Below are positions 47,027 through 52,243 of a stretch of DNA of 64,000 nucleotides, piece by piece. Origin of the DNA: a virus (lineage: Duplodnaviria > Caudoviricetes); IMG/VR virus record IMGVR_UViG_3300021400_000143, positions 16,616 through 80,615 of that record; one strand, written 5' to 3'. The first letter of the stretch is position 1. Every line of letters starts with the position of its first letter. The position numbers were made by a program, and so were the translations under genes. Below the pieces are notes generated by a model. That model searched no databases, was not told the origin of the DNA, and worked only from the letters and a program-made list of their open reading frames with translations.

Positions 47027-49828
47027 TTAGAACGGTGCTTCGCCAGCTATTGGTAAGCCAAGAGGGTCTAATTCTTCTTGTTGAACGTTTATTGTAGTAT
47101 CGTTTGCAAACGAAATAGATTGTTGCTCTTGTGCGTTTTCTATCTTGTTGATAACATAATTGCTATTATCCCAAGGTATCTCGTTAGGGTTGATATAAAC
47201 AGCTTTACCATCTATGTTTGGTATTGAAACGTATCTACCGTTATTGATATTAAATACAAATGTTGCACGACCTTTTTCTCCAAGATGTCTGAACTTCATT
47301 TTGGTAACGTGCATTTCAGCATAGTTGGCTTGCTCGTTTCTCCACACTGTTATACCTATATCAGCTTTGTCGTAGATTTCAGACGCACCTTTGCAAGCGT
47401 ACAAGTCAACGACAGGATATAGTCCGCTTTCAAGTTTTTGTTGTTTGGTTGGGTGCATAACAAGGAACAAAGCGACATCATACTTTCTTGCAAACCATCG
47501 TATCTTTTGCAAGAACTCGCTTATATATTCATCTTGCTTTTGTGTTGTTCTCTCTTTATCAGTTAAAGCGTTGAAAGGGTCTATAACGAAAGCTCTAATT
47601 CCTTTCTTACGAATGAGATATTTTCCACGTTCAAGCACGGAGTTAATATCTGTATCATCTGGGTCAATCCAAAAGAAATTGTTATTCACGTATTCTTTTA
47701 GAACTTCGTATGTACGTTGGTTGTAGTTTTGTGCGTTGAATCTTGCACCACCAAGCGTTTCTATTATCTGCGATATATGCAATGTAACAGGATAAAACTC
47801 TGGAGAGAAGAAAGCAATCTTCCAATCGTTAAGAATATTCAGTCTTGAAAGGAAATAATTAAGTAAGTACGTCTTGCCGTGGGATGGCACTCCAGTAACA
47901 ACCGTCAGCATACCAGTCTTGAAAGACAATATATTGTCAACATCGGGAATACCTATCGTTGCACCTTTTTGCAGTCCGTTGTGGAATAAATAGTCCAAAT
48001 CGGTTTGAACATCATAAAGTTCTTCAATGCCCTGTGGCTTTACATCGTAAGCGTTTTCAAAGCACTCAATAACTTTTTCACGACCATACTTGACAAGAAC
48101 TTCGTTTATATCTTTGCAACCGTCAGGATATTCGACAACCTTACACATTTCAGCACCGAACCTTCTAATAAGTTCATTCTTTGCTTCAATGCCTTTCTTG
48201 TCTCCATCCGTTGACACATAAATGATTTCAAGCTTGTCGAAATGGCTCTCCACATAATCATCCATCCATTCAAGATTTACGTTTGCACCTGCTGGCATAG
48301 ATATTACGTGTTTGTAGCCACATTCAAGATAAGCAAGAGTGTCACAGTTGCCACTAACAGTAATGTTTTCGTTTTGTCTAACAAGAAGCGTTCCTTTAGG
48401 CATTGTGCAACAATAAACCATTCCTTTATATGGAACAAGTCTTTTTCTATTAGAACTAATAGAAGAGAAACTTTTTTTCAACAAAGAAACCTTATACCAT
48501 TTTCCATGTTCGTTTTCTCTGTATGTTATTGTTGACATCATACCTCCTAAATGGCATAATGTTTGAACCCAAACTGCATTGTGATACAATTTTGTGTTGT
48601 ACTCTTTCATTGTTCGGTTGTTCACGCTATTACCATCCCACAAAACAAGTTCTTCAAGCATTACACGTATTTGCTCTTTGCTTGCAAGATAAAGCCATTC
48701 ATTAGGAAATTCCTTGTATGCTTGAATTTGGTGTCTATGCACATAAAAATCTACATAACCATCACGACTACTCTTATAAGCAGTATAGCGAAGATTGTTT
48801 TGTTCAAGCAACATCTTTATTCTTTCAATCTTTCGCTCTTTTTTAAAGCAAGCATAAAAGTCACCTTTTTCTCTTATAGTGAAATCAGCACTTATTGCAA
48901 TCAGTAAGCGTAAACGCTCTTCGCTTAAAGGAATACCTACACCATTGTAAATGCCGTTTCTTGGAATGTTGATTTGCGAATGAATATCTATTGCATGGCA
49001 TTTTTTGATTATACCATTTCGCTCGACAACAAGATTATGCAGTGGTGTGGTGAATGAAGTATAATTACCTCTATGACTATATAATTCGACCATATCCCCT
49101 TCGTATTGTTTACGAACAATAGCCAAAGGTTTTGCAAAGGTGATTATGCCATTTTCCCATTGCGCTACTTCATCGTTTTGCTCTAAGTCCTTAATCTTTT
49201 TCCAGCATCCGCTTTGTGTAAGAACCTGTGCGTCTTCATCAAAACACTCGCCCTCTGTAATGATGCAATACTTTTGCTCACCATCAGAATAAGATTTTTC
49301 AGCAATACTATCGAGGTTATAAGGAACAACCTTAGCACCGCCAATAAAAGTGAAATGTTTATCTCTTGTGCGGTATTTAGTGTTTACATGCTCACCATCC
49401 ACATAATAGTTAAACGCAATACAACCTCTCTTTGCTGAATCTTGTGGAAAGTAATAAGTCTCTTTCGTTACTTTCGCTTCAAGTAAAGTCTTTTCAGAGA
49501 TACCACGTCCTTTAAAATATGCAACCACACCTGCATCCAAAGTTGTTTGTATGTTTGGTTGTGTGCTTGGTTTCCTATATGTTTTTGGCATGTGCTTAAC
49601 CTCTCTATTTATCCGTTGTATAGACTCTCGTGTTCGTGATTTCAAATAACCACTCGCACCGCAATAATGGCACTTATATGCAAGTGTTGCACAATCTATT
49701 GACAAAGACTTGTCTTTCTTATTACTTCTTTGTTCGTGGCATAAAGGACAAATTACTTTTATGTGTCCTGTATTTCTGCCATTGAGATAATAAGCAAAGT
49801 CTTCGATATATAGTTTATCATTGTCCAT
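47027..49828 (-). CDS. T7 gp4/Twinkle-like primase-helicase, interrupted by an intein
   Basis: Zn finger CPLC/CHYC, Toprim EGE|CD, Walker A GVPSHGKT, IDPFN, HPTK. Confidence 0.9.
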   Translation of the reverse strand: MDNDKLYIEDFAYYLNGRNTGHIKVICPLCHEQRSNKKDKSLSIDCATLAYKCHYCGASGYLKSRTRESIQRINREVKHMPKTYRKPSTQPNIQTTLDAGVVAYFKGRGISEKTLLEAKVTKETYYFPQDSAKRGCIAFNYYVDGEHVNTKYRTRDKHFTFIGGAKVVPYNLDSIAEKSYSDGEQKYCIITEGECFDEDAQVLTQSGCWKKIKDLEQNDEVAQWENGIITFAKPLAIVRKQYEGDMVELYSHRGNYTSFTTPLHNLVVERNGIIKKCHAIDIHSQINIPRNGIYNGVGIPLSEERLRLLIAISADFTIREKGDFYACFKKERKIERIKMLLEQNNLRYTAYKSSRDGYVDFYVHRHQIQAYKEFPNEWLYLASKEQIRVMLEELVLWDGNSVNNRTMKEYNTKLYHNAVWVQTLCHLGGMMSTITYRENEHGKWYKVSLLKKSFSSISSNRKRLVPYKGMVYCCTMPKGTLLVRQNENITVSGNCDTLAYLECGYKHVISMPAGANVNLEWMDDYVESHFDKLEIIYVSTDGDKKGIEAKNELIRRFGAEMCKVVEYPDGCKDINEVLVKYGREKVIECFENAYDVKPQGIEELYDVQTDLDYLFHNGLQKGATIGIPDVDNILSFKTGMLTVVTGVPSHGKTYLLNYFLSRLNILNDWKIAFFSPEFYPVTLHISQIIETLGGARFNAQNYNQRTYEVLKEYVNNNFFWIDPDDTDINSVLERGKYLIRKKGIRAFVIDPFNALTDKERTTQKQDEYISEFLQKIRWFARKYDVALFLVMHPTKQQKLESGLYPVVDLYACKGASEIYDKADIGITVWRNEQANYAEMHVTKMKFRHLGEKGRATFVFNINNGRYVSIPNIDGKAVYINPNEIPWDNSNYVINKIENAQEQQSISFANDTTINVQQEELDPLGLPIAGEAPF
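48347..49246 (-). mobile_element. Intein, 300 aa, with a LAGLIDADG-like endonuclease region
   Basis: Block A CFDEDAQVLT, block B TPLH, block F VYCCTMP, ends SGN before Cys+1; removal restores EGECD. Confidence 0.9.
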
Positions 49829-50621
49829 TTTCTGTAAACCATTGTAGTATGAATTGCTTTCGGTTATTCATCCATCCTTCTTTTGCGCTTGCTGGTAGCA
49901 TGTGATATTGGTACGCATCTAATTGTAATATCTTAGCTTGCTCTGAATCTGTGAGAGACAAGAATTTTTGCATCATATCTTCTTCTTTGCTATTTGATGA
50001 TTGAGAAAATAAGTCGTTGTTATTGTTTCTATTCCCATACCATGTTGCACAACATTTTTTCCAATTAGATACTTTCTTTCGATTAGCTCCTTTACCATAA
50101 TGCCAGTCGTCAGCTTCATAATAATCAACAAAAGCCTTTGCACTAAAGTTATAACCCTTTTCTTTGATAAAAGCTTCAACTTCTTGTATTGTTGGTGGAA
50201 TAAATTCTTTTGGCTTTTTATTATCTTTATTATTATCTGGATTATTATTATCTTTATCTGGATTATTATTATAATTAAACTCACGCGCGTGAGAGGGTTG
50301 TTGCTCTTGGCAATGCAGACTTGTCGAAAACGACAATGCTGATTTGATATATCTTTTACGACCATCGAATTTTGTTTTTATAACATAACCCTTTTTCATC
50401 AATGAAGAAAGTGTTTTACTTGCGTTTGCTATACTAATACCTAACAACTCTGAAATATACTCATTGGAGAAATAACAATCCTTATCTTTTGAAGTGTAAC
50501 TATCTATTTCGAGAAATAATATTTTCTCATTCCATGAAAGGCTTTTATCCTTCCAAATTTCTATTGGAATCCAAATACCTTTTATTTGTCTTTCTTGTTT
50601 GATTTGTTCTTCTTGGTCCAT
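49818..50621 (-). CDS. Replication initiator / replisome organiser (winged-HTH N-terminus)
   Basis: GIWIPIEIW..LSWNEKIL...SNEYISELLG...LMKKGYV; directly upstream of the primase-helicase. Confidence 0.7.
   Translation of the reverse strand: MDQEEQIKQERQIKGIWIPIEIWKDKSLSWNEKILFLEIDSYTSKDKDCYFSNEYISELLGISIANASKTLSSLMKKGYVIKTKFDGRKRYIKSALSFSTSLHCQEQQPSHAREFNYNNNPDKDNNNPDNNKDNKKPKEFIPPTIQEVEAFIKEKGYNFSAKAFVDYYEADDWHYGKGANRKKVSNWKKCCATWYGNRNNNNDLFSQSSNSKEEDMMQKFLSLTDSEQAKILQLDAYQYHMLPASAKEGWMNNRKQFILQWFTENGQ
50219..50271. repeat. Iteron-like direct repeats inside the initiator gene
   Basis: TTATCTGGATTATTATTA at 50233 and 50254; TTATCTTTA at 50221 and 50248. Confidence 0.55.
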
Positions 50622-50627
50622 AATTTT

Positions 50628-50761
50628 GTAGCTGTTTGTTTAGAAAACCAAACGGACGATATTACTCACGTCAGCTACTCCGCTTTCATATCGCCCGTTT
50701 CGGCAAAAATAGTAATTACTTTATCTCGCTTTACTTTGCGTTTAATGTAGCTGGCAACGCA
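50628..50761 (-). ncRNA. Candidate structured 5' leader of the initiator operon
   Basis: 6-bp and 13-bp hairpins with complementary loops CAGCTAC/GTAGCTG; a second CAGCTAC lies before the ATG. Confidence 0.55.
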
Positions 50762-50781
50762 TCGTAATCATCTTTCTTTTG

Positions 50782-50813
50782 CAAAGAAAATACTTTTATT
50801 TTAAACACACAAA
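50782..50813 (-). promoter_or_regulatory. Near-consensus promoter TTTG-N20-TTTCTTTG
   Basis: One mismatch in the -7 box; directly upstream of the leader. Confidence 0.45.
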
Positions 50814-50836
50814 TGTTTTGAATGTTTTAACAAAAA

Positions 50837-51445
50837 TTATAATGGCTTGGTGTATTCGCCATATTGCTCACAACATTTAGTAACCTCAATCTTCGTAGCA
50901 TTATACCAAAGTTTATACACTTGGGAAACATTTTTATCAAACCCTTGTGCAACACATCTTGTTTCTGGTGTGCATGGGTAAATCTTGCAATCCGAATATG
51001 AGTCGCAAACACAACAATAATGAAGTTTGTTATCATATATTCTGGCATACGCAAACCAGTCGAGAATCCATTTGTTTTCTTTTGTTACGATATATACAAG
51101 CATACCTTTTGACAGAGGTAAAATATCGTCCCAAATAAGAATGTCGTTTTTATCATCAAACTGCTTAAACGTGCAGATACTCTTATCAAATGGCTCTTCT
51201 TTCTTTGTACTGTACCGTTCTTCATGACACTTAGCAATCTGGTCTCTAATTTTTTTAGAGACTTTCTTGTCAAGCATAGAAGCGTTTGTGATAGTATGCA
51301 GTTCATACTGAAAGAATAATTCTGTCGTAATCTTTGCGCAATGATGTTTTTTCGCAATTTCTGAAAAACCTTTGAGGGTTTTCTTTTTCTGATAATACTC
51401 TACCACATCACAGAGGTAGTTGTGAAATTTCTCGTAGTCAATCAT
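50837..51445 (-). CDS. Hypothetical protein
   Basis: 202-aa ORF. Confidence 0.65.
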   Translation of the reverse strand: MIDYEKFHNYLCDVVEYYQKKKTLKGFSEIAKKHHCAKITTELFFQYELHTITNASMLDKKVSKKIRDQIAKCHEERYSTKKEEPFDKSICTFKQFDDKNDILIWDDILPLSKGMLVYIVTKENKWILDWFAYARIYDNKLHYCCVCDSYSDCKIYPCTPETRCVAQGFDKNVSQVYKLWYNATKIEVTKCCEQYGEYTKPL

Positions 51446-51457
51446 AATCTTTAAGTT

Positions 51458-52243
51458 TTAAAAAAGTGAAAGTTGTGCTTGCTCGTTCTTGATTCTCTTG
51501 CAAGCAATGTCGTAGTATTCCTTTGAGAGTTCAAAGCCGATGAAGTGCCGTTTCTCTTTGATACACGCTATTGCAGTTGTGCCGCTGCCCATGCAGTTGT
51601 CGAGCACGGTGTCGCCCTCGTTGGTGTAGGTCAGAACGAGATAGCGCAACAGGTCAACGGGCTTTTGGGTAGGATGAAGACGCTCGGAATCTCTGTCAAA
51701 AGCGATAAGATTGATAGGGAATCGACTACCATCGCTGATTGTTAGAGTTCCACCATCTTGCGCCTTGCATACACCGCGAACCATTGCCGTGTCTTTCTTT
51801 TGCGCTCCACTCTTGCAGACGTATGGCTCAAAGCCTTGTCGCATTTGCGGATTGTAGTTGAGATAGATGCCGCGTTTGCTCTCGGTGGTTGCCGCTTGAC
51901 CGAATACGCAGATGTCCTCGGTTATCTTCAATGGCTGATGATGTGCGTTGAGAAAGTTCGTGCCGCTATCCTTTTGCCATATCCAATTATACTTGTAGTC
52001 GTTGACATTCGACATAATCAATGCCGAAGTAAACGGCTGCTGGCTGAACAATACGATTGCCGCTGTCGGCTTTACGATGCGTCGGTACTGTTCCCATAGC
52101 TTGTCGAAAGGTATCACGCTATCCCATGCGCAGGCGGTTGTCCCATACGGCAAATCGCAAATCACCGCGTCAATCGTTCCGTCGGGAATGTTTTTCATTC
52201 CTTCAAGGCAATCCGTGTTATATATCGTGTCGAGTTCAATCAT
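51458..52243 (-). CDS. Amino-DNA methyltransferase (N6/N4, beta class)
   Basis: DLPY, HPTQKP, VLDNCMGSGTT. Confidence 0.9.
   Translation of the reverse strand: MIELDTIYNTDCLEGMKNIPDGTIDAVICDLPYGTTACAWDSVIPFDKLWEQYRRIVKPTAAIVLFSQQPFTSALIMSNVNDYKYNWIWQKDSGTNFLNAHHQPLKITEDICVFGQAATTESKRGIYLNYNPQMRQGFEPYVCKSGAQKKDTAMVRGVCKAQDGGTLTISDGSRFPINLIAFDRDSERLHPTQKPVDLLRYLVLTYTNEGDTVLDNCMGSGTTAIACIKEKRHFIGFELSKEYYDIACKRIKNEQAQLSLF

Follow-up and report, generated by a model that had tools for sequence, protein, structure and literature searches.

The closest described analogues of the phage leader reported here are the seqA-CI-seqC region of P4 and the rep pseudoknots of IncI and IncB plasmids. In P4, an antisense segment (CI) lies between two complementary copies (seqA and seqC) in the leader of the replication operon, and control is exerted by RNA-RNA pairing (PMC4825925). 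The CI RNA is processed and acts in trans, by premature transcription termination, in connection with a lysogen or plasmid state. In the I-complex plasmids (IncI-alpha ColIb-P9 with its repZ gene, IncB and IncK), the loop of a hairpin in the rep leader pairs near the start region, and a competing loop-loop kiss decides whether this pseudoknot forms, with the loop bases setting the specificity (PMC10724649; Asano and Mizobuchi 1998). The competitor in these plasmids is a separate antisense RNA (RNAI or Inc RNA) from the opposite strand, and the pseudoknot, which depends on a leader peptide, is an activator of translation. A further system with a partial likeness is the guanidine-IV riboswitch (mepA motif), which has two kissing hairpins, the second of them before the gene and followed by U residues, and in which the kissing bases are conserved as the ligand site.

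With P4 the phage leader shares the order of its three sites (here called X1, X' and X3), an antisense segment flanked by its targets in the leader of a replication operon. There is no homology of sequence or structure, and no match to the Rfam families C4, c4-a1b1 or isrK was found at E <= 10. In contrast to P4, the downstream copy lies directly against the AUG and so suggests an effect on translation, there is no evident processing signal, and the phage genome is without a tyrosine integrase, an HTH_3 repressor or partition genes. With the I-complex plasmids it shares a hairpin loop that pairs beside the start region of the initiator, in a helix that covaries among relatives (see below), but its competitor is a second hairpin on the same transcript, it has no conserved upstream ORF, and its pairing site overlaps the ribosome footprint, which suggests repression, unlike the activation seen in the plasmids. 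No opposite-strand antisense RNA gene of the I-complex kind was found, there being no conserved antisense promoter. Unlike the guanidine-IV riboswitch, to which Rfam gave no match, the phage leader has eight or nine versions of its kissing bases, and a third copy at the AUG. Since there is no model match, no conserved antisense gene, no leader peptide and no lysogenic or plasmid state, the phage leader is a member of neither of its two closest analogues. As read from its sequence, it is distinguished by a built-in competitor, a putative loop E-like module and hosts that appear to be those of Bacteroidota phages. No such phage leader was found in Rfam 15 or in the literature searched; the large catalogue of RNA candidates from the human microbiome in PMC8040213 may include it.

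The element would be a self-contained form, with its own competitor hairpin, of the kind of control by antisense RNA and pseudoknots that has hitherto been described in plasmids and P4. To our knowledge, almost nothing is known about gene control in Bacteroidota phages, whose hosts start translation without a Shine-Dalgarno sequence, and a compact and widespread three-site RNA at the point where replication switches on could serve as a model for the dose or timing of an initiator. Its interchangeable 7-nt address is also a potential orthogonal regulatory part for Bacteroides genetics. Our preferred reading, to which we give a probability of about 0.6, is that the leader is a cis-acting translational gate, in which loop 2 masks the start region of the initiator gene and loop 1 competes for loop 2.

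The locus and its leader

The window analysed here is a stretch of 64,000 nucleotides that covers bases 16616-80615 of a virus record; the record is complete, with 80,615 bp and direct terminal repeats. The part of it that was flagged in a first-pass annotation lies on the minus strand in an intergenic gap of 215 nt, and all leader features are read on that strand (Table 1). The annotation had placed the leader before an initiator and a primase-helicase, and this gene context agrees with the domains found, HTH_36/DnaD-like in the first protein and Toprim/DnaB in the second. The N-terminal domain of the initiator matches phage replication-initiator families. The stop codon of the initiator overlaps the start of the primase-helicase gene, and the second gene is therefore probably translationally coupled to the first. 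When the region was compared by blastn with 50,697 phage records, the sole match was the HTH region of the initiator, in a Bacteroides uniformis phage, and the leader itself had no match.

Table 1. Features of the leader and its surroundings, in window coordinates
Feature	Position	Strand	Remark
202-aa ORF	50837-51445		Upstream of the leader
Promoter of Bacteroidota type: -33 TTTG, 20-nt spacer, -7 box TTTCTTTG	50782-50813	minus	Pattern match
Hairpin 1, 6-bp stem TGCGTT/AACGCA, 13-nt loop	50737-50761	minus	
Site X1, CAGCTAC in loop 1	50747-50753	minus	Kissing partner of loop 2
Perfect palindrome of 10 nt, AGTAATTACT	50711-50720	minus	In the A/U-rich spacer between the hairpins
Hairpin 2, overall	50650-50700	minus	
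Hairpin 2, outer stem, 13 bp	50688-50700 with 50650-50662	minus	
Hairpin 2, internal loop GAAA / GAGTA	50684-50687 and 50663-50667	minus	
Hairpin 2, inner stem	50680-50683 with 50668-50671	minus	
Hairpin 2, apical loop, 8 nt, AGTAGCTG	50672-50679	minus	
Site X', GTAGCTG in the apical loop of hairpin 2	50672-50678	minus	Complementary to X1 and X3
U-run 3' of hairpin 2 (GGUUUU)	50644-50647	minus	At best a weak or attenuating terminator
Site X3, second CAGCTAC	50628-50634	minus	Positions -13 to -7 relative to the AUG; loop 2 is proposed to pair here
Initiator ATG	50619-50621	minus	
Replication initiator gene, 267 aa, HTH_36 / DnaD-like N-terminal domain	49818-50621	minus	First gene after the leader
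Primase-helicase gene, 933 aa, Toprim_2 and DnaB_C domains	47027-49828	minus	

A promoter had been reported just upstream, and one is present, at 50782-50813, although it is of the Bacteroidota type; a sigma-70 scan, which is uninformative for this host type, had no match at its position. A TAnnTTTG box is found at the equivalent place, directly 5' of the conserved leader, in most relatives, and from the promoter match the transcript would be expected to start near 50776 on the minus strand. Inspection of the sequence before the initiator ATG showed no Shine-Dalgarno, and its absence together with the promoter type fits a Bacteroidota host. The leader would be about 155 nt long, roughly 50776 to 50619, and is probably a cis-acting structured 5' RNA. 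Three elements described in the first-pass annotation are all found in it as claimed: hairpin 1 displaying its 7-mer, hairpin 2 with 13 bp and one G-U pair favouring this strand (it would be an A-C mismatch on the other) followed by GGUUUU, and a second CAGCUAC 7-13 nt before the ATG.

Taken one at a time, neither the fold nor the 7-mers stand out by number. Single-sequence folding is unremarkable (z = -1.74), and the reality of the element was therefore judged by comparison with relatives. The 7-mer occurs six times on the two strands of the 64-kb window, as expected by chance, but three of these six lie inside 126 nt; the other three sit within coding-like sequence. No more copies of the address adjoin start codons in the window, and there is no other 9-mer in it that is complementary to loop 2. 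An exact 19-mer of loop 2 had no match in IMG/VR. The region had been put forward as a candidate RNA switch, and it is uncatalogued: a cmscan of 49500-52000 against all 4227 families of Rfam 15 at E <= 10 gave nothing but two chance snoRNA matches.

Across the complete 80.6-kb genome, no match to Phage_integrase, HTH_3, ParB_N or AAA_31 was found, and by its gene content the genome is one with no sign of a lysogenic, prophage or plasmid state. Its sole recombinase signal is a resolvase-type serine recombinase of 281 aa (G000:C1:11749-12150, minus strand; locus L216), which lies outside the window. The primase-helicase is 933 aa long in the window and in L005, compared with 633 aa in L006 (2842-4743), and the window protein has a weak match to a Hint module at residues 191-268; a length difference of 300 aa would fit an intein.

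Two other candidate features of the region were considered and rejected. A match to the Bacteroidota-type promoter lies on the opposite strand at 50598-50628, over the initiator start codon and pointing into the leader. It is the only promoter-like match on that strand and stems from the A-rich start region, and as a conserved antisense promoter it was rejected after reading the sequences of L054 and L058, neither of which keeps it. An ORF of nine codons with two in-frame ATGs (50741-50770, minus strand) spans the 5' arm of hairpin 1 and its loop. A conserved upstream ORF or leader peptide was also rejected, as the nine codons that begin at 50770 in the window correspond to two codons in L054, and L053 and L008 have no ATG there.

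Relatives and conserved structure

The initiator has 778 homologues in a large protein collection, many of which consist of a highly conserved N-domain and mosaic C-terminal parts. Loci were gathered by exact-protein look-ups, by protein-pattern scans of viral, metagenome and genome contigs, and by one DNA-pattern scan. Between the promoter and the last base before the ATG, leader identity is ~96-98% in the three closest loci; the flanks diverge, and one compensatory change (G-C to A-U) is already seen in hairpin 2. The initiator of L005 is 62% identical, and the protein of L006 has a different N-terminus. More distant relatives have the same leader architecture with different sequences. A covariance model, which was built from 11 leaders and encodes the two hairpins alone, finds one element in the window and one in the whole 80.6-kb genome, at 139 bits, and it recovers the element in every close-relative locus searched, including L052, which was outside the seed. 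In L101 the architecture was recognised by eye; with model R1 it falls below the cut-off of E <= 5, and it is excluded from the counts given here. Two sets of leaders lack the element: those of initiator homologues with translational coupling to an upstream gene, and those of a second group (L009 and its kin).

The two hairpins are supported by covariation throughout. RNAalifold on 11 leaders gave 24 pairs, 17 of them with compensatory change. In the model-based alignment of 20 distinct rows, 95.6% of the cells are paired, compared with 76.9% in shuffled and 32-47% in slid alignments, and 28 of the 31 pairs covary. For the helix of hairpin 1 the paired fraction of cells is 97%, and three of its five pairs are compensated. 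In hairpin 2, all 12 outer-stem pairs and all four inner-stem pairs show compensatory change; across relatives, the outer stem has 9-13 bp, the inner stem 3-4 bp and the apical loop 8 nt, with an invariant A as its first base. Many of the G-U pairs in these stems would be A-C mismatches on the opposite strand. They are valid on the mRNA strand alone, and the structure therefore belongs to that strand. On this comparative evidence, the leader is a real, widespread and uncatalogued structured RNA, apparently of Bacteroidota-type phages.

The most conserved RNA segment is the internal loop of hairpin 2, with an entropy by column of 0.44-0.49 bits compared with 0.8-1.2 elsewhere. Of the 22 leaders, 19 have GAA-N on its 5' strand and N-AGUA on its 3' strand, and the remaining three have a different purine-rich internal loop. 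AGUA opposite GAA is the consensus of the bulged-G module known from sarcin-ricin and loop E RNAs. Such modules are common protein-docking or tertiary-contact motifs. The likeness here consists of the GAA/AGUA sequence in those 19 leaders, and by this consensus match the internal loop would be a loop E-like module.

A conserved internal loop and an invariant loop base could also make a binding site of another kind. If the leader were a transcription attenuator or riboswitch, hairpin 2 and the U-run behind it would terminate transcription, and a kiss stabilised by a small ligand or a protein would tune read-through toward the replication genes, much as in the guanidine-IV riboswitch. Four to seven U residues do follow hairpin 2 in the window and in many relatives, and GAA/AGUA and the invariant A are at hand for binding. 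However, the kiss requires a formed hairpin 2 and hence cannot serve for antitermination, and no other helix that could do so is conserved. In L058, L210 and L215 the U-run is down to 3 U. A simple terminator scan, itself uninformative for this host type, found none in the region, and the window hairpin has its 13-bp stem followed by GGUUUU but encloses 25 nt. A U-run that varies from 3 to 7 U among relatives is too variable for hairpin 2 to be called a conserved strong terminator. The kissing bases vary freely, unlike a ligand pocket, no Rfam riboswitch matches, and the third copy at the AUG would be left unexplained. We hold an attenuator or riboswitch to be quite improbable.

The palindrome of the spacer is found at the equivalent position in 19 of 22 leaders, in six variants that are all perfectly palindromic (the variant of L222 has 12 nt). 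It is kept even at its central dinucleotide, which a simple hairpin would not demand, and it may be a site of RNA dimerisation or a DNA site for a dimeric protein. The latter would suit a reading of the whole region as DNA, an origin or operator in which the palindrome is a binding site, the 7-mers are iterons or operator half-sites for the initiator or a repressor, and the hairpins are incidental or form in single-stranded DNA. Origins often adjoin initiator genes, and the spacer is A/T-rich around a 10-nt palindrome that is palindromic to its centre. Against this, covariation extends to all stems, these contain frequent G-U pairs whose counterparts on the other strand would be A-C mismatches, and the GAA/AGUA module is a motif of RNA. 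The 7-mers themselves bear on this reading most directly.

The three-site address

The first-pass annotation had claimed that GUAGCUG can pair either with loop 1 or over the translation-initiation region, and that claim held up well, as both helices covary and pass the shuffle and slide controls. The helix between loop 1 and loop 2 (columns 30-36 with 114-120) is paired in 100% of cells among 20-22 distinct leaders, with six of its seven pairs compensated. This kissing helix is not encoded in the covariance model, and the alignment is therefore not biased toward it. The helix between loop 2 and the pre-AUG copy was scored in a further alignment, made separately with MAFFT over the segment between loop 2 and the AUG; here 97.9% of cells are paired and five of the seven pairs are compensated, and its covariation score was reached in none of 500 shuffles. 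Conservation and covariation of the 7-mers among homologues, on which the annotation had staked its proposal, were thus found in 22 distinct leaders. These leaders have eight or nine different 7-mer addresses, which change jointly at X1, X' and X3. The address duplexes are similar in predicted stability, from -8.4 to -10.5 kcal/mol.

The pre-AUG copy is perfect (7/7) in 18 of the 22 leaders and matches at six of seven positions in two more, and it ends 1-8 nt 5' of the AUG. In L052 and L060, and in L101 (by eye), the kiss is kept and the pre-AUG copy is missing, and the loop-loop kiss is therefore the universal core of the element. The DNA-pattern scan found the leader before three other first genes (L196, L197 and L207), with a pre-AUG copy that matches fully or at six of seven positions. 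In L006 it precedes the initiator with the different N-terminus, again with the pre-AUG copy. From these differing first genes it follows that the third site is part of the leader and tracks the start codon and not one protein. In all four loci the leader behaves as a mosaic module, bounded sharply by the promoter on one side and by the start codon on the other, a pattern that suggests recombination at the leader edges.

The same loci help to decide whether the 7-mers act as RNA or as DNA. Co-evolving binding sites would likewise give 7-mers that change jointly in both orientations. However, in L210 loop 1 has a G where the pre-AUG copy has an A, and loop 1 still pairs with loop 2 by G-U wobble; the copies differ as DNA and still pair as RNA, and this is therefore a case of RNA pairing and not of identical DNA sites. 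Further, the same addresses occur with unrelated first proteins, and different addresses with initiator N-domains that are 62-83% identical. The address is thus uncoupled from protein identity, which argues against the 7-mers as binding sites of the initiator. The third copy, where present, also abuts the AUG. Together with the covarying stems, these points leave a DNA-level element very improbable.

Proposed cis-acting translational gate

The kiss and the pre-AUG pairing use the same bases of loop 2 and therefore cannot coexist; the two pairings would be mutually exclusive, as the first-pass annotation had inferred. Initiation in Bacteroidota needs an unstructured A-rich leader, not a Shine-Dalgarno sequence. 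Because of this need for an open leader, pairing of loop 2 with the start region (-1 to -15), which would hide the start from the 30S subunit, is proposed as the OFF state. When loop 2 kisses loop 1, the start region would be free and the gate ON. Hairpins 1 and 2 are transcribed first, and the kiss should therefore form first, such that new transcripts would begin ON and turn OFF once hairpin 1 is lost or occupied. Hairpin 1 might be removed by a cleavage in the A/U-rich spacer; other candidate triggers are the binding of a protein to the GAA/AGUA loop and a second RNA molecule that shares the address. The leader probably sets the amount of initiator produced; it would act on translation of the initiator and, by way of the overlapping stop and start codons, probably on that of the primase-helicase as well.

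Several features of the sequences speak for such a gate: the distance from hairpin 2 to the AUG is kept at 15-29 nt across leaders, the promoter lies directly upstream, and there is one copy per genome. By our own estimate, the pseudoknot is feasible in cis but taut, with a linker of ~10-16 nt between hairpin 2 and X3 for a stem of ~17 bp. Because L052, L060 and L101 are without the pre-AUG copy, masking of the start site cannot, as the sequences stand, be the sole function of the leader. A point against the gate is that a stable kiss that forms first might seldom give way to the OFF state in cis. It is also worth noting that pairing beside the AUG could in principle activate translation instead, by analogy with the IncI plasmids.

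The address may also be read by other molecules. In this alternative, which is compatible with the cis gate and which we consider unlikely, the leader is released, or a short form of it ends at the U-run or is made by processing, and its loop 2 pairs with the pre-AUG copies on other transcripts, in the manner of P4 CI RNA or plasmid Inc RNA. The targets would be sister genomes (dosage or copy control) or co-infecting kin of matching address (exclusion), and loop 1 would be a built-in decoy. The order of the sites is indeed that of P4, with targets on both sides of an antisense loop in a replication-operon leader (PMC4825925). The addresses form a small repertoire that is uncoupled from the similarity of the backbones, such that an identical address is found on backbones that are 42% identical and different addresses on backbones that are 76% identical. 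Phages from the same rumen samples have different addresses (L008 and L057; L058 and L060). In the I-complex plasmids, a single loop change alters compatibility (PMC10724649).

On the other side, the per-site diversity of the address is 0.78 bits and does not exceed that of the remaining leader, and faster evolution of the address, a candidate signature that was looked for, was not seen. The U-run is weak in many members, and a discrete short RNA is thus not assured. In any single molecule, loop 1 should already occupy loop 2. No gene for a tyrosine integrase, an HTH_3 repressor, ParB or a ParA-like protein was found in the genome, and no state that would need immunity is evident. No additional target sites lie beside start codons in the window. 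If the leader does also act in trans, it would be the basis of a new form of incompatibility between phages. A more specific form of this idea, in which the 7-nt address is a code of kin recognition and released leader RNAs silence in trans the initiators that have the same address, we regard as decidedly unlikely. Were it true, it would mean RNA-only control of replication dosage, and exclusion or incompatibility, among integrase-less Bacteroidota phages, with an address swap as the escape route. The cis gate, as set out above, remains our preferred reading.

Related leaders and gene calls

A second class of leader is found before initiators that are 61-63% identical (L009, L010, L014, L015, L017, L019, L032-L034 and L050). 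It takes up ~130 nt before an ATG near 1498-1501 and is without hairpin 1. An outer stem of 8 bp surrounds an apical loop like that of hairpin 2, and an inner 8-mer could pair with a complementary 8-mer that lies ~20 nt upstream of the AUG. Between L009 and L010, this 8-mer pairing shows a compensatory change from A-U to G-C.

The element can also mislead the annotation of its first gene. In L217-L219 the public gene call at 601-1374 (protein P0005) begins ~15 codons early and runs through hairpin 2 of an element at 500-634; the true start of P0005 is the one that lines up with the ME... start seen in its relatives. As gene callers extend ORFs across it in this way, the element merits an entry in Rfam.
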